From NCBI GenBank assembly GCA_963758295.1, contig CAVWUU010000004.1:480001-544000 (forward strand): a DNA stretch of 64,000 nt, written 5' to 3'. The DNA is from Candidatus Eremiobacteria bacterium. GTDB lineage: Bacteria > Vulcanimicrobiota > Vulcanimicrobiia > Vulcanimicrobiales > Vulcanimicrobiaceae. Shown here piece after piece: positions 23,338 to 33,370 of the stretch. Below the pieces are notes generated by a model, which worked only from the letters and a program-made list of their open reading frames with translations, had not been told where the DNA came from and ran no database searches. Each line of letters begins with the position of its first letter. Position 1 is the first letter of the stretch. Both the position numbers and the translations under genes were made by a program.

Positions 23338-24746
23338 TTACAAGGTAATCGTTACGGTCGTTCCGCGCGCGGGAGCGCTCGACAAGCGGATCGTTCCGCC
23401 GGCCCTTTCCACGGCTCGCTTGCTATTGCGAGTCCCAGGCCGCTCCCAGCAATTTCGCCGCGCTGATCGCCGCGATAGAAACGTTCGAACGCGTGCAGTT
23501 GTTCCGACTCGGTCATCCCGGGACCCTCGTCGGCGACCGTAATGGTGGTATGGCCGGCGTTCGCGCCTGCCGCCAAGTGAATGGGTGCCTCCGGCGCATA
23601 TTTCAAGGCATTTTCGACGATGTTCCAAATGGCGTCGCCTAGCTCAACGCGGTCGCCGACGATCGATCTTACGCCATCGACGCTGTAGTCGACGATCCTG
23701 GCTGTCGTCAAGGCGTTTTGCCGCATCGACCTGACTGCGAAGCAGCTCCGACAAATCGATCGTTTCCACGCGAGGAGGCGTGTCCGAATCGAGCCGTGCC
23801 AAGCGCATGAGCCGGTCGATGAGCGTCCGCATGTGTTCTTTCTCGAACGCCATGGTGGCGAGAATCTGACGCGCTATCGTCGGCTCCTCGATTGCGCCCC
23901 GACGCAACACGTCGATGTAGCCGCCGATTACGGTAAGCGGCGTACGAAGTTCGTGTCCCGCATCGGCGACGAATTGCCGCATGCGTTCTTCCGTCCGCTG
24001 CCGTTCGCCATGGCCCCTGCGACGTTTGCTGCAGCGTCGTTATAGGCGGCGGTCAGGGTGCCGATTTCGTCGCCGCCCGGCGCCAAAAAGCGTCGCTGCG
24101 TAAAGTCGCCTTCCGCAAGCGCGCGAAGCGCGTCGGTGACGTCGGCGATTGGGCGCAGGGCCTGGCGCGCGAAAAAGCGCCCGATGAACCAGGAAAGCAC
24201 GATCGAAATTACCGCGAGCGTAACGACGACGCGCCAATACGGTAAGAGCGAAACGAGCAACAGCGGCAACGAAGGTGAGAACGCGACAAAACCGCCGTCC
24301 ACCGCCGTGAGCGCAAACGGCTCCGCGGGCCCGATGGCACGATAACCGCCCGGATGCTGCATCTCCATTGCTTCGCCTAACCGGCTCGTGGGTTCGGGCG
24401 GCGGCAACTCTTCTTTGCCGCTTAGCACAGCATTCAGAACGGGTGGACGAAGCGTCTTATCGCCGGCCAAAAAGCGTCCGCGCTTGTCGAATACCGCGAC
24501 GCGCAAACCGATGCCGCTCAGAGCGTTGACGATTTCCGGCGCGGCTTGCTGGAGCGAGAGCCCCTCGGCTTTGTACTGCTCGGTGAGTATGCGCGCTTCT
24601 TCGTGCTTTGCGATAACGATGTCGCTCGTAAAGTTCGTCAGTTCCATGACGAGCGCGATGCTCGAGGCGAGAATGACGAGCAGAATCGTAATACCAAGAA
24701 GCGTCGCGTACAACCACGACAGCCGGGATGCGAGAGATTGCTTCAT
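23338..24746 (-). CDS. HAMP sensor histidine kinase; three frameshifts (~24005, ~23700, ~23420)
   Basis: TM-HAMP, then DAGHELRTPL H-box, ENALKY and GSGLGLAI in successive frames. Confidence 0.8.
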
Positions 24747-24749
24747 GCG

Positions 24750-25429
24750 TTACTGCGAAAGCCCGTAACCGACGCCGCGAACCGTGCGGATGAAAGAGCC
24801 GGGTTCGCCGGGCCGGTCGATCTTCGAACGCAAGTACGAGATATACGTTTCGACGATGTTCGGGCCGCCTTCGAAATCGTGACCCCATACGATCTCGAGC
24901 AGATGATCTTTGCTGAAGACGCGCCGCGGCTCGCGCATGAAACACCGAAAGCAAATCGAACTCTCGCTGCGTCAGATCGATTGATTCTTTGCCTCGCCAG
25001 GCTTCGCGCGTGGACGGGTTCACGGACACATCGTGCCAGCGAACGATATTTTCTTCGATGAGTTGCGGGCGCCGCAGCTTGGCTTGCAAGCGTGCAATGA
25101 GCTCTTCGAACACAAACGGCTTCACCAAATAGTCGTCTGCGCCGGCGCTCAAACTCGCAACTTTTCCTTCGGTATCGCCCTTGGCGGTTAGCATGAGGAT
25201 CGGCGCTTGCGTGAGTTCGCGGAGCTTTGGCAGCAACGTAATACCGTCGATTTTCGGCATCATGATGTCGAGAACGATCACTTCGGGATCGAAGCGACTG
25301 TACGAGGTCCAGCGCCGCACTACCGTCGGCGGCCGTCTCGACTTGATAGCCTTCGCGAGAAAGCCCCAGTTGGAGCATTTCGCGAATCATGCGGTCGTCG
25401 TCGATCACGGCGACACGAGCGTTGAACAT
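24750..25429 (-). CDS. OmpR/MprA-family response regulator; two frameshifts (~25297, ~24940)
   Basis: VIDDD, LDIMMP, GADDYLVKPF and VETYISYLRSKID...TVRGVGY spread over three frames. Confidence 0.82.
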
Positions 25430-25465
25430 ACCGAGCATTTCTACGGCATATCATCGCGCCTACCC

Positions 25466-25486: not shown

Positions 25487-25942
25487 TCAAGCGGCGTGCA
25501 GTGGTGAATGCCAGCGGCGATATGTTCCTCCGGAGATGAGCGCCGCTTGACGGATCGCTTCTAAGGGGTGGGAAATGAGCGTCACGCCCGAGCGGCGCAA
25601 TCCGGCGACAAGGACGTCATCCGGGAACCACCGCGCGAACAAGTGCACTTCCGCCGTACCTGCCGCCTCGGCTAGAAGGGCGAGGACGTCGGCGAGGCTG
25701 CATTCGACCCGGGTGAGGAGCCGCTCGACGACTTCAGTGCGGAATCGCGGGCCGTTCCACCCGGCCGCCATGACGAGGACCTTCGAAAGATCCGCTGCCT
25801 CCGTCGACTCGAAGTCGACGAGAGCCGCTTTTACGTTGGCCGCGATCAGCGGATCGGTCTGCGCGTGCAGCGTAGCCCCTGCGATCGTTGCGTGCGGGCC
25901 GGCCGTGAGGAGGGCGCCGGAACCGATGACGTAGTCGTTCAT
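25487..25942 (-). CDS. Hypothetical protein
   Basis: 151-aa ORF with ATG and AAGGG SD, fills the intergenic space. Confidence 0.6.
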   Translation of the reverse strand: MNDYVIGSGALLTAGPHATIAGATLHAQTDPLIAANVKAALVDFESTEAADLSKVLVMAAGWNGPRFRTEVVERLLTRVECSLADVLALLAEAAGTAEVHLFARWFPDDVLVAGLRRSGVTLISHPLEAIRQAALISGGTYRRWHSPLHAA

Positions 25943-25984
25943 GCCCTTAGGATCGCACCGGCGAATGCCAACTGCATGGCATTC

Positions 25985-26016
25985 AAAAATAAAGAGGCGC
26001 CGCTAATCGGCGCCTC
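25985..26016 (-). terminator. Intrinsic terminator after HD-GYP gene
   Basis: GAGGCGCCG-attag-CGGCGCCTC followed by TTTATTTTT on minus strand. Confidence 0.75.
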
Positions 26017-26058
26017 CGCCCACACCCGGTCGCGGGTTTTTCCCTCGAGCGCCGGACG

Positions 26059-27045
26059 TTACGCCGAGGAAAGGTGAAGGTTCGCGTGCGACACGATCGG
26101 CGTTCGCTTTGCGAACATGCCAAGCATCGCGTCGACGACGTCGGGATCCCATTGACGGCCGCGGCCCGCTTCGAGAATCGCAAGCGCTTGCCGCGGAGGG
26201 ATCGGATTGCGGTACGGACGCTCGCTGATCATCGCGTGGAACGCGTCGGCCACGGCCACGATGCGGGCTTCGAGCGGGATGCTCGTGCCGGCCAAGCCGT
26301 CGGGATAGCCGGCACCGTCGTACCGCTCGTGGTGAGCACGAACGATGAGCGAGCAGCGTTGCAGCGTCGGAATTTGATTGAGCACTCGTGCGCCGGCAGC
26401 GGCGTGTTCCCGCATGATGTCCCACTCGTCGGGGGTCAGCGGCCCGTTCTTCAGCAGAATGGAATCGGGCGTCGAAATCTTGCCGATGTCGTGCAGCAGG
26501 GCGCAGAGCGAGATGAACTCGGCCATCTCTTCATGGCATCCCATGGCGAGAGCAAGGCGGCGCGCCCATTCGGCGGTCGCTTTGGAGTGACAGCACGTCC
26601 CATGATCGCGTTCGGACAACATGGCGAGCAGGGCGTTTGTACTTTCGGAATAGCCCGCTTCCCCATGCTCTTCCACTTCGGCGCCGAGGGCGCCGCGCTC
26701 GATTTCCCGTACGAGGACGTCTAGAAACGCCAGCAGGCGACCGTGTTCGACGTCGAACGGCGCGGCCGCAAGAGCGATCGCGTGGACGGCGGCGGCGGAC
26801 ACATCGATAACGCCGGCCTTCCCTAGGGCGGCGGTTTCGCGTTCAGACCAGCTCAGCAAACCGACTGGCTTCGCCAGAGTAAGAGACAGACAAAGCCGGT
26901 CCAGCAAGACTTCTAAGACTTGCTCCGTGCGGCGGTGGCTGGCAAGCGAGGACAAGGTAACGTGCTCGAACGCTTTATGCGCGAGCGCAGAGAGATCTTG
27001 CCCAAGAGCGGCTCCCAGAGCCGAAAGCGTACGAACCGAGGACAT
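26059..27045 (-). CDS. HD-GYP domain phosphodiesterase with helical N-terminal domain
   Basis: LLHDIGK, HHERYDGAGYP, VADAFHAM and RPYR motifs; ATG 27045 inferred. Confidence 0.88.
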   Translation of the reverse strand: MSSVRTLSALGAALGQDLSALAHKAFEHVTLSSLASHRRTEQVLEVLLDRLCLSLTLAKPVGLLSWSERETAALGKAGVIDVSAAAVHAIALAAAPFDVEHGRLLAFLDVLVREIERGALGAEVEEHGEAGYSESTNALLAMLSERDHGTCCHSKATAEWARRLALAMGCHEEMAEFISLCALLHDIGKISTPDSILLKNGPLTPDEWDIMREHAAAGARVLNQIPTLQRCSLIVRAHHERYDGAGYPDGLAGTSIPLEARIVAVADAFHAMISERPYRNPIPPRQALAILEAGRGRQWDPDVVDAMLGMFAKRTPIVSHANLHLSSA

Positions 27046-27077
27046 TGATGGATACCGAAAGCGAAAAGCTGCTCGGG

Positions 27078-27146
27078 TTAGCCCATTCCGGTCGGGGGAT
27101 AGTTGCACGCGACGACAAAGGCGGCGATGGCGAGAAGGGTGATCAT
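27078..27146 (-). CDS. Unannotated 22-aa peptide MITLLAIAAFVVACNYPPTGMG (candidate exported/lipidated signal precursor)
   Basis: ATG...TAA; GAGGAAG SD about 10-12 nt upstream; hydrophobic N-terminus, lipobox-like VVAC, polar tail. Confidence 0.6.
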   Translation of the reverse strand: MITLLAIAAFVVACNYPPTGMG

Positions 27147-27192
27147 GTAATTTGGGCTTCCTCAATAAAAACGAGTTGTCTGCCCAAAAGAT

Positions 27193-27234
27193 AGCCTAGG
27201 CCAATCGGCCCGGTCCCTACTTAGTTTTAAGTAG
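27193..27234 (-). promoter_or_regulatory. Activator-dependent promoter: 18-bp palindrome CTACTTA-N4-TAAGTAG (27217-27234) plus -10 TAGGCT (27193-27198)
   Basis: Perfect 7-bp arms, NarL/LuxR-like; 18 nt from the -10, centred near -41. Confidence 0.6.
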
Positions 27235-27240
27235 AGCCGT

Positions 27241-29874
27241 TTACAGCGCGTCCTCCAAGTACCCCATGCGCCGTGCGGTCGCTATTGCTTCCGCTCTACC
27301 GTGACAGCCGAGCTTCTCTATCAGGTTTTGAATATGGGTCTGAACCGTATAAACGCTACGCTCCATCTCGGCTGCTATATCCTTGGTCGTTAAGCCGCTC
27401 GCCAAAGAGCGAATGATGCGGAGTTCCGAGGGTGTTAGCTTGATGAAGACCTCTTGGGTGTGCGACGACTCGACGTACGTGGCGCTCGCCCGCAGATAGC
27501 GCCCGTAGTTTCCGAAGCCGAAGCTTTCGAGAGCCGCGATTCGCAACGCGATATCGTCCGGCACGTAAGACGCGCTCTTCGCCGCGCGTGACAACTGCTC
27601 GACCGCCTCTCGCATGCATACCATCGCTTCGGTAGAGCAGATCGGCGGCCGCTTCAAGATTCGCTGCGCTGCCGTGTGGCGGCCGCTAAGGGCTTCCGCC
27701 ATCGCGCTCAGCAGCAACGCCGCTTCGTAAACGGCGCTGCCGTATTCCCCCGGTGAACCCGAGGGCAGCTTGTCGAGGACGCCTTCCACGGCCTCGGCGC
27801 TCTCCTTAGCTTTGGAGTTCAGGGCCAGGCACAAGGCGCGGAATGCCGCGGTCGCGGCACGATCGGCGGCATGCGCCGACCGTTCTTGGACGATGCCGAA
27901 GAGACGCGCGGCCTCCGCAAACTCTCCGTTCCACGCATGACGGTGGGCTTGGCTCGCCATGACGTATGGTGCGCGCATGGTGTCGCTCGGCCGGAGATCC
28001 GCCAGCTGACGCTCGATTTGGAGCGAGCGCTCGGCATTGCCGCGCTTGATTTCTTGCGCGAGCATTTGCAGGAGCGAGATCTGCAAATCAAAGTAATCGC
28101 CGGCTTTCGTAGCGGCGGCCGCTGCCTGCTGCGAATACCATGAAGCTAGGCTCGTATCGCCGTCGCCGAGCGCCGCACACGCGGAGAGCGCCTGATACGC
28201 GCGCGAGGCGAGACTCCAGAGGCCGCTCGACGACGCGAGCTCCGCGGCTTTTTCTTGATAGCTCTTCGCACGATCGATATCGCCGCTCTCCTGGCGCGCG
28301 AGGCCGATACGTTGCAAGAGTTTGGCGAGCAGCGGAACCTCGATCACGTCGTCGAGCGATCCCTCCACGACGGTGATGTTTGCGGCCGCGCGCTGAACGT
28401 CGCCCGTGCGCACCGCAAAGACCGCGAGCATTGCGCGCGCTTCCAGTTTCGTTGTATCAGGCGCGTCGCTTTCGAGCAGCGAAAGGAGCAGCTCGTTCGG
28501 ATCGCGTCCCTGATTGACCAAGAACATCGCGAGCCGCAAAACCAGGTCTGCGCGAACTCGCGGATCGCCGCCCAAGCGAATAGCACGCTGCAGATGACGT
28601 TCGCCGGAATCGTAGCGGCCGGCTGCGATTTCGAGGATTCCTTTGAGGCCGTTCAAGATCGCTTCGCGCGCGTGCATCGGCGGCGGAATCGCTTCCAACG
28701 CACGCGTCACGACGTCGCCATGCCCCTGCGTAATCAGATACATGCCGTGCGCGAGCAATAGCTGGACCATGTGTTCCGGGCTGCCGGCATCGACGAAAAG
28801 ATTCAGCGCCGCATCGAAGTCGCCGCGCTTCTGCAGCACGGCGCCGAGCGTTACCCGGCGTTCGAGCGCTACGCGCTTTCCTTGCAACGCCAATTGGTGC
28901 TGGACGAATTCACGGAACAGATCGTGCAGGCGATACCCGGCGGCGTGCTCGTGAATGAATGCAACGCGTTGACGCAAATCTTCGATCATCGCAGCGGCTC
29001 GATCGAAGCCCGCCTCGGTCATCACGTCGACGTTGATCTCGGAAAGCAGCGAAGCGCTCTCGATAAAGCAGCGTTCTTCTTCATTCAGCGTCGCGTAGAC
29101 TTGCTCGGCGAGATAACGGTAGATCATCTCGCGCGTCATCGTCGAGATGTTGCGCAGATCGATCGAACGCGTCGACGAACGCAGGGCGAAACTGATTGCC
29201 GTCGCCCAGCCGTCGGTCAAATGCAGAAGATCGTAAAGCTCTTCGTCTCGCACGCCCAGGCGGAACGTGCGCGCGGCTTCTTTCGCCTCGTCGACGGAAA
29301 ACTTCAGGTCGTGTTCGTCGATGGCAAGGTCGCTATCGCCATACGCGAGCCAGGTGCCGATCGGGAGACCGAGCGTCGAGCGCGACGCAATGATCCATTG
29401 CACGCGCCCCTTCGTGCGTTCGATGAGCGCGCTCAAGAAACGCGTCACTTCGCGGTCTTCTTGCGCCACGTGCAAATCGTCGATGGCGATGACGCCTCGA
29501 TATGACTTCACGTGGGAGTGCATCCAAAGGGCCAGGTCCGCGCCGGGATTGGCAGATCCGGCGTTCTTCTCGTAGGCGCCCGGCAACGTGGCGCGCGCGT
29601 CGGGAGCGATTTCGATCAGCGCGTCGGCGAAGCCGCGCAAAAAGCCGAGCAGTGCCCCGTGGTCGCTTCTCACGTCAAAGCGAACGCACGACTCCTTGCT
29701 TGCCTCCAAGAATTGAGCTAACGCCACCGACTTGCCGTATCCGGCAGGCGCTACGATCAGCACGACACGCTGCATTGCTGCAGACGCGATCCGATCGATT
29801 ACGCGACGGCGCACGATCGGTACAAAAACTCCGCCGGTCTCTATGGTGCCGTCGGAGCGAACGGGCCGGATCAT
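27241..29874 (-). CDS. MalT-like STAND transcriptional regulator (NTPase, TPR-like region, LuxR HTH)
   Basis: APAGYGKS Walker A, IDDLH, TDGWA, YRLHDLF; C-terminal LTPSELRI...TVQTHIQNLIEKLG. Confidence 0.88.
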   Translation of the reverse strand: MIRPVRSDGTIETGGVFVPIVRRRVIDRIASAAMQRVVLIVAPAGYGKSVALAQFLEASKESCVRFDVRSDHGALLGFLRGFADALIEIAPDARATLPGAYEKNAGSANPGADLALWMHSHVKSYRGVIAIDDLHVAQEDREVTRFLSALIERTKGRVQWIIASRSTLGLPIGTWLAYGDSDLAIDEHDLKFSVDEAKEAARTFRLGVRDEELYDLLHLTDGWATAISFALRSSTRSIDLRNISTMTREMIYRYLAEQVYATLNEEERCFIESASLLSEINVDVMTEAGFDRAAAMIEDLRQRVAFIHEHAAGYRLHDLFREFVQHQLALQGKRVALERRVTLGAVLQKRGDFDAALNLFVDAGSPEHMVQLLLAHGMYLITQGHGDVVTRALEAIPPPMHAREAILNGLKGILEIAAGRYDSGERHLQRAIRLGGDPRVRADLVLRLAMFLVNQGRDPNELLLSLLESDAPDTTKLEARAMLAVFAVRTGDVQRAAANITVVEGSLDDVIEVPLLAKLLQRIGLARQESGDIDRAKSYQEKAAELASSSGLWSLASRAYQALSACAALGDGDTSLASWYSQQAAAAATKAGDYFDLQISLLQMLAQEIKRGNAERSLQIERQLADLRPSDTMRAPYVMASQAHRHAWNGEFAEAARLFGIVQERSAHAADRAATAAFRALCLALNSKAKESAEAVEGVLDKLPSGSPGEYGSAVYEAALLLSAMAEALSGRHTAAQRILKRPPICSTEAMVCMREAVEQLSRAAKSASYVPDDIALRIAALESFGFGNYGRYLRASATYVESSHTQEVFIKLTPSELRIIRSLASGLTTKDIAAEMERSVYTVQTHIQNLIEKLGCHGRAEAIATARRMGYLEDAL

Positions 29875-29918: not shown

Positions 29919-30251
29919 CTAGGCAAGAGTATCGAGCGGCGCACGATACTCGTCTTCGCCCTCATAATACCCTATTAGCTGCTCCTCGAGAAAGAGCATG
30001 TGCAACTGCCGGTCCAAACGAGCGTATGCCTCGGCGTTTTCAGAGCGGAAGCTCTCCCAAGCGGCCCGGTCTTCCCACACGTCGACGGTGAGGTAGATTG
30101 CGGGATCGCGCCTATGGCGGAATAACCGCGTCCTCACGTAGCCCGGTGATTGCCCGAACAGCTGGGCGAATGGGCCGCCGCTGCCATACGCATGTTCGAA
30201 GGCGCGTGCCTGGGACTGGTGCACGCGGTAGCGGTAAAACACCTCGATCAT
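29919..30251 (-). CDS. Antibiotic biosynthesis monooxygenase (ABM)-like protein
   Basis: AFEHAYG...PGYVRTRL...YLTVDVW. Confidence 0.7.
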   Translation of the reverse strand: MIEVFYRYRVHQSQARAFEHAYGSGGPFAQLFGQSPGYVRTRLFRHRRDPAIYLTVDVWEDRAAWESFRSENAEAYARLDRQLHMLFLEEQLIGYYEGEDEYRAPLDTLA

Positions 30252-33200
30252 CGGCGATCTGCCTCGCCGGCTTGTCCCGGCGCTCCTCGATGCACCGTCG
30301 ATGTCAAAAGCGAAGGCAGCTTCGCGGCGCGCACTTCCTGGTCCAGGGCCTTAACGCGCTGAGCGAATGACGCATACTGCGAGAGCCGGTCTTGCGTTAG
30401 CCGCAGCAGAGCAGCGTCTTCGCCGAGCTGCGCCTGCGTGGGCGGCGCATTGGAATCGAAGTACGTGTCGATCTGGGTTTGCAGCCGTTCGCGCAAGACG
30501 TCGGGCAAGAAGTCGTTGTCCTGATCGTTCAGCGGGTTCGACGTAAACGCCGGAATCAGGGCTCCTGCGGCATCACCGAGTTGCCGGACGTTGGACGCCA
30601 GATCGGCGTGCCCGTCTTTCGCGAGCGCGGCTGCTCGAAGCGGCGCTTCTTGCCTTACCGTGCTCAAGCCGTTGAGCGCGTCGTCAACTTTCGTAAAGGC
30701 ACCGATCAAACGCTCGATCCGCGCGCTGCGCTGAGCCAATTCTTGCGTGCTGTAATGCGTGCGCGTGTCTTGCCGCACGATGATGGGACGCTCGTACGTC
30801 TTTCCGTCTACGTGCAAACGCGCAACGTACCGGCCCGGAACGACGGGTGCGCCGCCGTCGAACGTGCCGCGATTCCAGCGCGGTGCAAACGTCCACTCGT
30901 GCGCGTTTTCCTTCGAGAGGTCCCACGCATAGCGATTCAAGCCCGCCTTATTCTCCACGGTTGCGGTGCGTACGACGTGGCCCGAAGCATCGAGGATGTC
31001 GATGGTCGGAACGATCTTTGCCGGCTTCTCCAAATAGTAAGAAATGAGTGCGCCGTACTCCGGCGCTTCGCCGTCGGGCCTCGTGCCGGAGTAGTTGAAT
31101 AGATTCCACTGCACGGCATCGCGGACCGGAAACAAATACGTTCCTGCGCTGCGAGCCCGCGACAACTGCTGAAGCTGCGTCGCATCGTCGAGCACCCATA
31201 TACCGCGTCCGTGAGTGGCAAGGAGCAGATCGTTCGTATCCGGCTGCAGCGCGATATCCCGCACGGAAACCGGCGGCAAGTTCGACGAAATGCGCTCCCA
31301 CGCCGCGCCGTCATTCCAGGACGCCCACAGCGAGCGTTCCAATCCCAAGTAAAGCACATGCGGCGTCTTTGGATCGGCGAGAATGCTGCGCGCTTCGTCG
31401 TCTTGCGGAAGGCCGGACGCGATTGGGCTCCAATGCGCGCCGAAATCGCGCGTTACGAAAACGTACGGCGTGCGATCTCCCACCATATGGCGGTCGTAAA
31501 CCGCATACGCGACGCCGGCATCGGTTTGCGACGGACTAATCGACGCAAATCTTCCGTACGGCTCGATCCCTTTGGGCGTAACGTTCGTCCAGTGTGCTCC
31601 GCCGTCACGCGTGAGCTGCACCACTCCGTCATCGGTGCCGATCCAAATTTCGCCGCGCCGCGCGTGCGACGGGGCCACGGCCAGAATCGTATCGCTCGTT
31701 TCGGCGCCCGTGCCGTCGAGCGTGATGCCGCCGGTGACCACTTCGTGCGCCGGCACGTTCAGGGTAAGATCGGGGCTAAGCTGCTTCCAGTGCAAGCCGC
31801 GGTCGCGCGTTGCGAAGAGGACGTTGCCCGCCGTGTACGTCACCGAAGGATCGAATGGATCGAAAGCTATCGGCGTTTCCCAGTTGAAGCGATACCTCAA
31901 GTCCTTGGGATCGATGACGTTTTGGTCGCGCATATACGGCGCGACCTCGCGGGTTTCTCCCGTCCGGAAGTTGTGAATCGTTAGGTCTCCCGCGAAGTTG
32001 CCGCCGGCATCGGCTTGCCAAACGAGTTGTTCGTCGCGCGGATCGAACATCGTGAACGTGCCATCGCCCGAGCCGACACGCATCCACTGGCTCGAATTTA
32101 CGCTGAACGCAAGCGGAACCGCAGCTCCGCACCAATTGCCGTTATCCTGTAAGCCGCCGCACACGCGATAGGCCAACCCGCGGGAGTAGCCGATATGGTA
32201 CAGCTGCGAAATCGGCAGCACTTTCTGCCATTGCCACGTTTCGCCGCCGTCGAACGAGAAGTTCACGCCGCCGTCGTCGCCTTCGATCACGCGTTTGCCG
32301 TCGGCCGAGATCCACATCGCATGGTGGTCGCCGTGCGTCCCGCGGCCGGTAATCTTGAAATGTCTGCCGCCGTCGGTGCTCACCGTCATGTGGACCGATT
32401 CCGCGAAGACGCGGTCGGCGTTCGCCGGATCGGCGAAAATTTTGCTGTAGTAAAACGGCCGCTCGTCGATCAGCGGATCGCTTGTGACGAGCGCCCACTG
32501 TGCGCCGCCGTCATCGGACCGCCACAAAAAGCCGTTCTTCGTTTCGATAAGGGCGTAAATGCGCTGCGGATTTGCCGGCGAGATGGCGATGGCAACGCGT
32601 CCGCGTTCTTCGGCCGGGAGCCCGTGGCCGGTGAGTTGCGTCCACGTTGCCCCGCCGTCGGTGGAGCGATAGACGCCGTCTTTGCCGCCGCCGCTTTCCA
32701 AGCTCCAGCCGGTGCGCCGGAACTGCCACATGCCTGCGTATAACAACGCGGGATTTCTCGGATCGGCTACGAGATCCGAAGCGCCGGTTTTATCGTCGAC
32801 GTAAAGCGTCTTCTTCCACGTTGCGCCGCCGTCCGTCGTGCGATACACGCCGCGTTCGCTAGAATCGGCAAACGGGTCGCCGAGGACCGCAACCACGACG
32901 TGTTTGGAATCGTGAGGATCGATAAAGATGCGACTTACGAGCGAGTTACGGACCGGCAAAACTTTCGTCCAATGCGCTCCGCCGTCGCTCGTACGATAAA
33001 TACCGTCGCCTTGCGTAACGTCGTTACGCGGATTCGATTCGCCGGTTCCCACCCAGACGGTTTGTTCGTTTTGCGGATCGATCGCGATGGCGCCGATCGA
33101 CGCTACGTCTTCATCGTCGAACACCGGCGTCCACGTCGTGCCGTTGTCCTTCGTCTTCCACAATCCACCGCCGGCTGCACCAACGTAGTACAACGACGAA

Positions 33201-33370
33201 TCGGAATCCGTTCCAGCGACTGCTCCGGCACGTCCGCCGGAAATCGCCGGACCGATGGATCGCCACTGCACGCCGGCAGCCGCGTCGTTTCCGGATGCGC
33301 GCGCGGGCAGTGAGCCGACCGTGGTGCCTGCAGCAAAGAATAAAGCTGCTGCTACAAAATGAAGACGCAT
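30248..33370 (-). CDS. Secreted VPS10/BNR-repeat glycosyl hydrolase-like beta-propeller protein
   Basis: WRSIGP..GR, many S/T-x-D-G-G-x-T-W Asp boxes, RFNWETP, ATHGRG. Confidence 0.88.
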   Translation of the reverse strand: MRLHFVAAALFFAAGTTVGSLPARASGNDAAAGVQWRSIGPAISGGRAGAVAGTDSDSSLYYVGAAGGGLWKTKDNGTTWTPVFDDEDVASIGAIAIDPQNEQTVWVGTGESNPRNDVTQGDGIYRTSDGGAHWTKVLPVRNSLVSRIFIDPHDSKHVVVAVLGDPFADSSERGVYRTTDGGATWKKTLYVDDKTGASDLVADPRNPALLYAGMWQFRRTGWSLESGGGKDGVYRSTDGGATWTQLTGHGLPAEERGRVAIAISPANPQRIYALIETKNGFLWRSDDGGAQWALVTSDPLIDERPFYYSKIFADPANADRVFAESVHMTVSTDGGRHFKITGRGTHGDHHAMWISADGKRVIEGDDGGVNFSFDGGETWQWQKVLPISQLYHIGYSRGLAYRVCGGLQDNGNWCGAAVPLAFSVNSSQWMRVGSGDGTFTMFDPRDEQLVWQADAGGNFAGDLTIHNFRTGETREVAPYMRDQNVIDPKDLRYRFNWETPIAFDPFDPSVTYTAGNVLFATRDRGLHWKQLSPDLTLNVPAHEVVTGGITLDGTGAETSDTILAVAPSHARRGEIWIGTDDGVVQLTRDGGAHWTNVTPKGIEPYGRFASISPSQTDAGVAYAVYDRHMVGDRTPYVFVTRDFGAHWSPIASGLPQDDEARSILADPKTPHVLYLGLERSLWASWNDGAAWERISSNLPPVSVRDIALQPDTNDLLLATHGRGIWVLDDATQLQQLSRARSAGTYLFPVRDAVQWNLFNYSGTRPDGEAPEYGALISYYLEKPAKIVPTIDILDASGHVVRTATVENKAGLNRYAWDLSKENAHEWTFAPRWNRGTFDGGAPVVPGRYVARLHVDGKTYERPIIVRQDTRTHYSTQELAQRSARIERLIGAFTKVDDALNGLSTVRQEAPLRAAALAKDGHADLASNVRQLGDAAGALIPAFTSNPLNDQDNDFLPDVLRERLQTQIDTYFDSNAPPTQAQLGEDAALLRLTQDRLSQYASFAQRVKALDQEVRAAKLPSLLTSTVHRGAPGQAGEADRR

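Follow-up and report, generated by a model that had tools for sequence, protein, structure and literature searches.

The 64,000-nt stretch of DNA analysed here (the window; contig CAVWUU010000004.1, positions 480,001 to 544,000) comes from a Candidatus Eremiobacteria genome (G000; 3.03 Mb in 6 contigs, 82% complete) and carries a gene for a MalT-like STAND (signal transduction ATPases with numerous domains) regulator, a putative palindromic operator, a short open reading frame (micro-ORF) for a 22-aa peptide and a gene for an HD-GYP phosphodiesterase (Table 1). The initial annotation had proposed a peptide-signalling loop in which the regulator drives its own exported peptide ligand together with a cyclic-dinucleotide output. 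Indeed, the 22-aa ORF (27146-27078), its Shine-Dalgarno (SD) sequence GAGGAAG, the perfect palindrome and the terminator all lie where that annotation had placed them.

Table 1. Features of the regulator-peptide-HD-GYP locus (window coordinates)
Feature	Position	Strand	Basis
BNR/sortilin-repeat gene	30248..33370	-	gene order in window
ABM-domain gene	29919..30251	-	gene order in window
MalT-like STAND regulator, 877 aa (P-loop NTPase, putative helical-repeat/tetratricopeptide repeat (TPR) sensor, C-terminal LuxR/GerE helix-turn-helix (HTH))	27241..29874	-	domain and profile matches
Putative palindromic operator CTACTTA-N4-TAAGTAG, arms 27217-27223 and 27228-27234, 6 nt past regulator stop	27217..27234	.	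inverted repeat, conservation
-10-like hexamer TATCTT (family consensus TATCCT/TATCGT/TATGGT)	27188..27193	-	cross-locus alignment
Stem-loop in the 5' untranslated region (UTR), arms 27182-27188 and 27151-27157 (TTTGGGC/GCCCAAA, 7 bp)	27151..27188	-	-11.9 kcal/mol, z -2.35
Shine-Dalgarno GAGGAAG of micro-ORF, 10 nt before ATG	27157..27163	-	sequence
Micro-ORF, 22 aa + stop, MITLLAIAAFVVACNYPPTGMG; uncharged hydrophobic N-part, Pro/Gly C-terminal tail	27078..27146	-	translation, conservation
Stem-loop 1 nt past micro-ORF stop, no T run in window	27055..27076	-	-8.4 kcal/mol, z -2.36
HD-GYP phosphodiesterase, 328 aa, with 140-aa N-terminal domain	26059..27045	-	HD_5 match
Intrinsic-terminator-like hairpin (stem 26017-25993) and T run, closing the unit	25983..26017	-	sequence

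The C-terminal region of the regulator matches GerE (Pfam PF00196, residues 813-866, E 4.5e-13) and its NTPase matches AAA_22 (E 5e-6) and AAA_16 (E 2e-5), the P-loop type found in the MalT/LAL family. A Walker A motif (APAGYGKS) and the motif IAIDDLH are present; Walker A is invariant across alignment A1, and G45, G47, K48 and D132 are invariant among 15 orthologues. The MalT profile NF003420 matches residues 20-431 (E 7.1e-40) with 136.8 bits, below its equivalog cut-off of 537 bits, and in a PDB profile search the regulator matches MalT (8bob, E 6.8e-20) while its HTH matches NarL, VraR and GerE chains. TPR_2 reaches 27.6 bits against a cut-off of 27 bits without any single stretch passing, and the regulator profile matches the TPR proteins PINS, RapF and APC5 with E-values from 5e-6 to 1.6e-4. 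By these domain and profile matches, the regulator belongs to the MalT/LAL STAND family without being a MalT orthologue. The product of the last gene of the unit matches HD_5 (PF13487, E 6.4e-42) and has the LHDIGK and HHERYDGAGYP motifs of an HD-GYP protein; neither Pfam nor Atlas gave a match for its 140-aa N-terminal domain, and no membrane segment is visible in its sequence.

The micro-ORF and its conservation

We scanned relatives of the regulator, one genome per species, and took the best 80 (L022-L101) of 392 stretches; 71 of these loci were assessable, six being set aside because the C-terminus of the regulator was absent and three because the sequence ended too soon downstream. The relatives belong to Eremiobacterota/Vulcanimicrobiota and are mostly Baltobacteraceae-type metagenome-assembled genomes. 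All counts refer to public records and the window; loci L005 (G004), L013 (G034) and L015 (G026), from unpublished genomes, served only as rows of alignment A1 and, in the case of L013 and L015, for the second lineage without HD-GYP noted below. At 65 of the 71 loci a hydrophobic micro-ORF of 20-45 aa is present intact, starting 34-130 nt past the regulator stop, so that the conservation beside orthologous regulators on which the initial annotation had staked its proposal is borne out. The start codon is ATG in 58 cases, GTG in 4 and TTG in 3, and 46 of the 65 homologous loci have an SD-like motif no more than 16 nt from the start. The frame is apparently shifted at L047 and L097 and was not found at L086, L089, L093 and L098. 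With a strict criterion, applied to the 330 nt past the regulator stop (16-46 aa, no Lys or Arg, Pro within the last 8 residues, and mean hydropathy of at least 2.0 over residues 2-14), 57 of the 71 loci score, compared with 0/71 of their reverse complements and a mean of 0.1/71 (maximum 1) over 20 shuffles.

The micro-ORF varies as a protein-coding frame does. Differences at codon positions 1, 2 and 3 number 73, 35 and 132 over 21 close pairs, which are not independent of one another, with pS at 0.231 and pN at 0.056; over 12 sister pairs pN/pS is 0.33 in the N-part and 0.37 in the last eight codons. Furthermore, L088, L091 and L092 encode the same peptide despite 8-10% divergence of their DNA. 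The micro-ORF is, by these measures, a real gene evolving as coding sequence; presumably it is translated, and its product counts as a molecule. We also considered an N-terminal extension of the HD-GYP gene from TTG 27165 (frame 27165-26059, which overlaps the micro-ORF) and rejected it: in most loci homology starts at residue 41 of this frame, and third-position variation tracks the frame of the micro-ORF instead. Because orthologue homology begins at that residue, the HD-GYP start is placed at ATG 27045 and the micro-ORF is separate from it. NCBIfam held no family for the four peptides searched, apart from a chance match of one of them to MgtS (E 0.1).

Most of the peptides are 20-26 aa long, with four at 35-45 aa, and typically begin M-[LIV]-T, followed by a stretch of Ala, Leu, Val and Ile; position 3 is Thr or Ser in 50/65. 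Lys and Arg are missing from 65 of 66 peptides, and 64 of 66 have Pro within the last 8 residues. The last eight residues are 25% Pro and 18% Gly, the C-terminal residue is Gly in 37/65, a PP motif occurs in 45/65, and Asp or Glu is found among the last nine residues in 39/65. Examples are MLTVLVIAALLVACDMPANPN (L072), MLTLVVVVAALLVAADMPPTGN (L049), MVTALVIAALLVVCDLQANSE (L028), MLTVAVFVAILALILPPIPIG (L081) and MLSLLVALFIALAITPPDPF (L091). A clade comprising L054, L056, L060, L061, L071 and L078 has acidic, non-membrane-like N-parts and keeps a PPxIG tail; the acidic N-part of MDSLILDLELIFASTVPPTIG (L071), for instance, is unable to span a membrane. The L053 peptide is without a hydrophobic stretch. 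At L055 (4668-4776) the micro-ORF encodes 35 aa with no hydrophobic N-part and consists of three tandem units of 8-9 residues ending VVPVGGA, resembling a multi-copy pro-peptide. Since the N-parts of the acidic clade, L053 and L055 diverge in this way, the tail is the sole feature common to all the peptides.

The association of regulator and micro-ORF is specific to one orthologue group, because no such micro-ORF was found downstream of the paralogue in the window genome or of 12 further copies of the regulator, paralogous or remote, that relatives carry. Eight of these 12 have a lipoprotein-like gene with ALPG-type repeats downstream, and a paralogue group from the same genomes (31-34% identity to the regulator) has a lipoprotein gene in that position. 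The arrangement of a paralogous STAND-LuxR regulator with a lipoprotein-like gene behind it, in which ALPGDA-type repeats occur, is seen at G000:C3:217889-221400 and at L104-L110 and L113; in the window genome the lipoprotein-like gene may have a peptidase-like continuation, and the two genes are apparently a separate conserved pair. Elsewhere, a degenerate sequence similar to the operator and a -10-like box accompany a remote orthologue (L112, G031:C40; 34% identity). The ORF 3' of this box encodes 44-50 aa, including a basic n-region and a LAAC lipobox, and may be related to the micropeptide gene as a longer form.

Promoter, putative operator and gene order

Aligned on the peptide start, nearly all loci share the series AACGG, the palindrome CTAnTnAA-nn-TTnAnTAG, GGAC or AGAC, and a TANNNT box. 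Outside a clade whose peptide contains TPPDPF, this box begins 22-23 nt past the palindrome at 58 of 59 loci by script, and at the 59th by eye. A strict palindrome test is passed by 51 of the 65 peptide-bearing loci, and the half-sites change jointly on both arms (CTACTTA/TAAGTAG, CTAGTTA/TAACTAG, ATACCCA/TGGGTAG), with one stem mismatch, CTACTTA/TCAGTAG, conserved in 16 loci. The position relative to the regulator stop, by comparison, varies: the palindrome lies within the end of the coding sequence in L066, L068 and L079 and can be over 40 nt beyond the stop at other loci. It is because its distance is fixed to the -10 box and variable to the regulator stop that we favour the palindrome as a promoter element. 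In the window genome this site occurs once. The initial annotation had taken TAGGCT as the -10; the conserved box is TATCTT, 5 nt downstream. With this box as the -10 and a start ~7 nt past it, the palindrome centre falls at about -44.5, not at -39.5, and its proposed class-II-like position is retained, with a constant spacing to the -10. No -35 consensus is present, and a scan with the sigma-70 consensus gave no full promoter. As deduced from the alignment, the promoter layout is activator-dependent and class-II-like.

The half-sites of the operator are ones that we take to resemble the NarL heptamer in a 7-2-7 arrangement. The regulator probably binds the palindrome: the two are adjacent, the regulator has a LuxR-type HTH, and peptide, HD-GYP gene and palindrome are lost jointly. 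Presumably it activates rather than represses, so that micropeptide and HD-GYP would be expressed from an activator-dependent operon. In three of the four genomes whose loci have no peptide (G061-G063), no operator-like site was found anywhere. A relocated operator was considered in G064 and G065 and rejected as unrelated, since the matches adjoin genes for BlaI-like repressors; at these sites (L116, L117) the operator-like sequences lie within TTGACA/TATTAT promoters upstream of BlaI/MecI-like repressor genes. In the 5' UTR of the micro-ORF, the SD lies within the loop and 3' side of the stem-loop listed in Table 1; other clades have a different stem (GCAG...CTGC) at that position.

The HD-GYP gene follows the peptide gene at 59 of the 71 loci; one locus ends at a contig edge and eleven are without it. 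In a regulator tree (FastTree) that included 67 of the 71 regulators, nine of these eleven fall in a single clade, and the other two, L084 and L088, are not among the 67. Six of the eleven (L084, L088, L091, L092, L095, L099) keep the TPPDPF peptide with a hairpin and T run of its own, and one has a degenerate ORF. A second lineage without HD-GYP, represented by L013 and L015 only, keeps the regulator and operator as well as the peptide with a terminator, and the next conserved gene comes directly behind these. Together, regulator, palindrome, micro-ORF and HD-GYP are supported by this comparison as a conserved unit, in keeping with what had been proposed from the window. In the window the HD-GYP ATG has no SD before it. 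In many clade-A loci (among them L026, L028, L034, L038, L040, L045, L046 and L048) the peptide stop is followed by a hairpin and a T run.

The unit sits in a conserved gene order, in which BNR, ABM, regulator, peptide and HD-GYP are followed by a 151-aa gene, a response regulator, a histidine kinase and a TonB-dependent receptor. The 151-aa gene (25487-25942, reverse strand), which has no Pfam family, always follows the module, and directly follows the regulator in L086, L089, L093 and L098. Upstream of it is a conserved TGGCAC/T...GC, similar to a sigma-54 -24/-12 promoter, with a GG-to-GC spacing of 11 nt, not 10. The two-component pair (23352-25438, reverse strand) is apparently split in the window: three ORFs that overlap one another encode HAMP (23928-24746), HisKA (23644-23982) and HATPase (23352-23726), and the response-regulator ORF, which matches Response_reg over its first 41 residues only, is overlapped by a long ORF (24457-25320). 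These broken frames may be pseudogenes or indel errors of long-read assembly.

Possible roles of the peptide

The regulatory wiring is well supported, and a signalling role for the peptide is plausible. We favour, with a probability of about 0.4, the reading that the peptide is a pro-peptide similar to the streptococcal short hydrophobic peptides (SHPs): its C-terminal Pro/Gly tail, which changes fast, would act back on the sensor of the regulator, with cyclic-dinucleotide hydrolysis as the output. The MalT-type STAND activator would act through one NarL-like palindrome ~40-45 nt upstream of an activator-dependent promoter, and this promoter would yield a short mRNA encoding the 20-26-aa micropeptide and, in most lineages, the HD-GYP cyclic-dinucleotide phosphodiesterase. 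The uncharged N-part would carry the peptide into or through the membrane; the active part would be the Pro/Gly-rich C-terminal 6-8 residues, often with Asp or Glu first and ending at the free C-terminus. Presumably the peptide is processed and released, and its tail binds the sensor domain of the adjacent regulator, which would close an autoinduction loop that lowers cyclic-dinucleotide levels. Of the initial proposal of a peptide-signalling loop, the conserved unit, the coding ORF and the promoter element have held, whereas the position of the -10 and the lipobox (see below) have not.

A tail ligand acting in trans is favoured because the tail is universal, lies at the free C-terminus and is under purifying selection, yet shifts fast between close relatives; because regulator and peptide form the core that remains where HD-GYP is missing; and because the layout mirrors that of SHP/Rgg. 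The shift is exemplified by L028 and L030, whose regulators are 93% identical and whose N-parts are 85% identical, with 2 of 7 tail residues equal. In this pair the tail has 7.7 nonsynonymous differences over 18.3 sites against 1.3 synonymous over 5.7 sites, and 49 of the 58 positions at which the regulators differ lie within residues 351-771. Over 100 pairs, mean identity is 0.80 for the regulator, 0.59 for the N-part and 0.40 for the tail. Co-folding of the 22-aa peptide with the full-length regulator (alignment A1) gave a score of 0.01, which we read neither for nor against binding, the partner being below the length range for which the method is calibrated. The window genome encodes at least 10 OppA-type binding proteins as well as M50 site-2 proteases, a finding that is permissive only.

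Several observations weigh against feedback by the tail. Tail change does not correlate significantly with excess change of the sensor domain in sister pairs (rho 0.37, p 0.086, n 23), nor does it in the residual version of this test (rho 0.39, p 0.067, n 23), and in L022/L023 and L033/L049 the tails are nearly equal, yet the sensor/NTPase divergence ratio is 3.5-5.2. The peptides are without the basic N-terminus that SHPs and Sec or lipoprotein signals have. A gene for a TonB-dependent receptor close by suggests a diderm organism, in which a released 7-8-mer would have to cross the outer membrane twice. The TPPDPF clade retains the peptide without a recognisable palindrome. L086, L089, L093 and L098, in turn, keep an intact regulator without peptide, HD-GYP or palindrome, and for this reason the regulator there has presumably another role or ligand. 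Finally, the hairpin right after the stop codon and the SD-less HD-GYP start also fit a role in cis. Taken to its full extent, the favoured reading describes a STAND (MalT-type) peptide autoinducer circuit in a diderm candidate phylum, in which lineage-specific tail 'pherotypes' would be read by the TPR-like sensor and ATP-dependent oligomerisation would switch on one promoter for more peptide and HD-GYP. We advance this circuit tentatively, with the odds against it; if true, cell-cell peptide signalling would be wired directly to cyclic-dinucleotide turnover.

The peptide may instead be an output only, a possibility that we find rather doubtful. There would then be no feedback. The regulator would respond to a different signal, perhaps a metabolite connected with the conserved BNR/sortilin-repeat and ABM genes upstream, and the peptide, which could be small and membrane-embedded or surface-active, would act together with HD-GYP or alongside it, for instance in dispersal or as a modulator of a membrane sensor. 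Small membrane subunits can be hydrophobic without Lys or Arg, and the strong hydrophobicity and near-complete lack of these residues here are as expected of one. MalT-family regulators are known for small-molecule ligands, MalT itself sensing maltotriose; the persistence of the regulator in the peptide-less subclade, the high divergence of the sensor even where the tail is unchanged, and the conserved synteny with BNR, ABM, the response regulator-histidine kinase pair and the TonB-dependent receptor all agree with a ligand of another kind. What this explanation accommodates poorly is the N-parts that have 2-4 acidic residues or no hydrophobic stretch (L071, L078, L053, L055) and cannot span a membrane while the tail is kept. 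A tail that is under purifying selection (pN/pS 0.37) yet shifts fast would also be unusual for a structural membrane peptide, and the HD-GYP protein has no predicted membrane segment.

We consider it unlikely that the micro-ORF is a cis-acting leader, whose translation controls the gene behind it while the peptide has no role in trans. In such a scheme, a ribosome at the Pro-rich end or stop would cover the 5' arm of a hairpin 1-6 nt downstream, leading to attenuation or antitermination; alternatively, termination would be followed by reinitiation onto the SD-less HD-GYP start. The hairpin directly past the stop in the window, the hairpins with T runs in clade A and the missing SD before the HD-GYP ATG suit one or other mechanism, as does a distance of only 6-11 nt from peptide stop to HD-GYP start in L066, L068, L077, L079, L080 and L081 of clade B. 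PP motifs, which slow ribosomes, are frequent in the peptides, and a similar abundance of Ile, Leu and Val marks the leader peptides of branched-chain amino-acid operons. However, the ORF is kept, encoding the same protein at 8-10% DNA divergence, in the HD-GYP-less clade with a terminator behind it; the lack of Lys and Arg, Thr or Ser at position 3 and the pN/pS of the tail are more than ribosome occupancy needs; and the tail, which lies beside the stop and is the expected ribosome contact, changes fastest. A consensus structure of 17 aligned clade-A sequences has 0 conserved pairs, the hairpins probably being out of register. Neither is the locus an amino-acid attenuator, as the hairpin after the stop is found in part of the family only and the downstream gene is HD-GYP rather than one for amino-acid biosynthesis.

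Far less probable is a mini-lipoprotein, in which the N-part would be a lipoprotein signal peptide cut at VVAC to leave an acylated CNYPPTGMG, as the initial annotation had suggested. A lipobox-like [LVI][ASTVI][GAS]C is present in the window peptide and in 9/65 homologues, and the 44-50-aa ORF of L112 does combine a basic n-region with a lipobox. On the other hand, 56/65 homologues have no lipobox and 38/65 no Cys at all, close relatives read AAD or ALD at the lipobox position, and no peptide of the family has a basic n-region; with the motif in so few homologues and the n-region in none, processing to CNYPPTGMG is not a conserved feature. That the micro-ORF is no gene, but a chance frame in a conserved non-coding leader, with the palindrome serving as a 3'-UTR hairpin of the regulator mRNA, is hardly credible: the palindrome region does lie in that 3' UTR and folds as RNA at -15.3 kcal/mol (z -6.1), but the codon-position pattern, pN/pS and strict-criterion controls favour coding, the palindrome keeps its 22-23 nt to the -10 while its distance to the regulator stop varies, and the stem mismatch conserved in 16 loci suits a protein site better than a hairpin.

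Comparison with known systems

The regulator has P-loop NTPase, arm, putative helical-repeat sensor and LuxR HTH in the same order as MalT/LAL proteins, with significant homology to the MalT NTPase and arm. MalT is a transcription activator with a dedicated regulon, and MalT boxes are asymmetric repeats; in place of these, the locus here has a NarL-like palindrome, with a micropeptide gene as the conserved partner. As in ilv/leu-type leaders and TnaC, a short ORF rich in Ala, Leu, Val and Ile lies immediately upstream of another gene, with a hairpin past its stop in part of the family; unlike in these, no biosynthetic operon lies behind the ORF, loss of the downstream gene leaves the ORF in place, constraint acts at the protein level and the last residues vary. 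The HD-GYP protein shares with RpfG-type proteins an HD_5 domain with HD and GYP motifs and differs from them in having the 140-aa N-terminal domain instead of a receiver domain.

The closest resemblance in layout is to the Rgg/SHP pairs of streptococci (SHP2/SHP3 with Rgg2/Rgg3). In passages of PMC3150281, SHP genes are unannotated 22-23-aa ORFs beside a TPR-type regulator, the active part is the C-terminal 8 residues with Asp first (DIIIIVGG), and the peptide promoter is the target of the regulator. The locus described here likewise has a short hydrophobic unannotated ORF (20-26 aa) by a transcription factor with putative helical repeats, and a putative operator before the peptide gene; an acidic residue is found among the last nine in 39/65 of the peptides. 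It differs in the presumed receptor, a STAND NTPase of 877 aa that carries a LuxR HTH, compared with the ~285-aa XRE-HTH protein Rgg; the peptide gene is co-directional and downstream, whereas SHP genes are divergent; the tails are rich in Pro and Gly, not in Ile and Val; the N-terminal Lys that the excerpted text of PMC10075063 gives for SHPs is missing; and the host is an Eremiobacterota bacterium, probably a diderm one.

As in the RRNPP systems (Rap, Rgg, NprR, PlcR, PrgX, AimR), a candidate pro-peptide gene adjoins a TPR-like regulator and the presumed mature part diversifies fast. The RRNPP signature, as set out in passages of PMC10075063, is a receptor of 250-500 aa made up of an effector domain and TPRs, an adjacent pro-peptide of 10-100 aa and Sec- or PptAB-type export. 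Peptides of 20-45 aa adjacent to the regulator at 65/71 loci fall within that pro-peptide range, and the receptor, with 877 aa and a STAND NTPase, falls outside the receptor range, for which reason membership was rejected. The similarity of the regulator to RapF (E 1.6e-4) is a weak one between TPR profiles, and apart from generic TPR no homology is detected. Although it may work like an RRNPP system by analogy, the pair does not belong to these.

In passages of PMC10075063 and PMC9765709, transcription factors that sense peptides in the cytoplasm are attributed to Firmicutes and to mobile elements of these. A full-text literature search, which did not extend to supplements such as the tables of PMC10075063, found no pairing of a STAND/MalT-type regulator with a peptide gene and nothing on peptide quorum sensing in Eremiobacterota. 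As read from its sequence, the locus is a dedicated conserved regulon of Baltobacteraceae-type Eremiobacterota, and even if the peptide is not a ligand, it adds a well-supported family of 20-26-aa genes missed by annotation and a clean one-operator regulon for the study of LAL-type activators. If the peptide is the ligand, STAND sensors would read short self-made peptides, and a soil phylum that is spread worldwide and uncultured would have a communication system open to testing, its promoter, operator and output being defined. Set beside Rgg and the other RRNPP receptors, this would be a new receptor architecture, with peptide signalling having arisen independently on a different scaffold.

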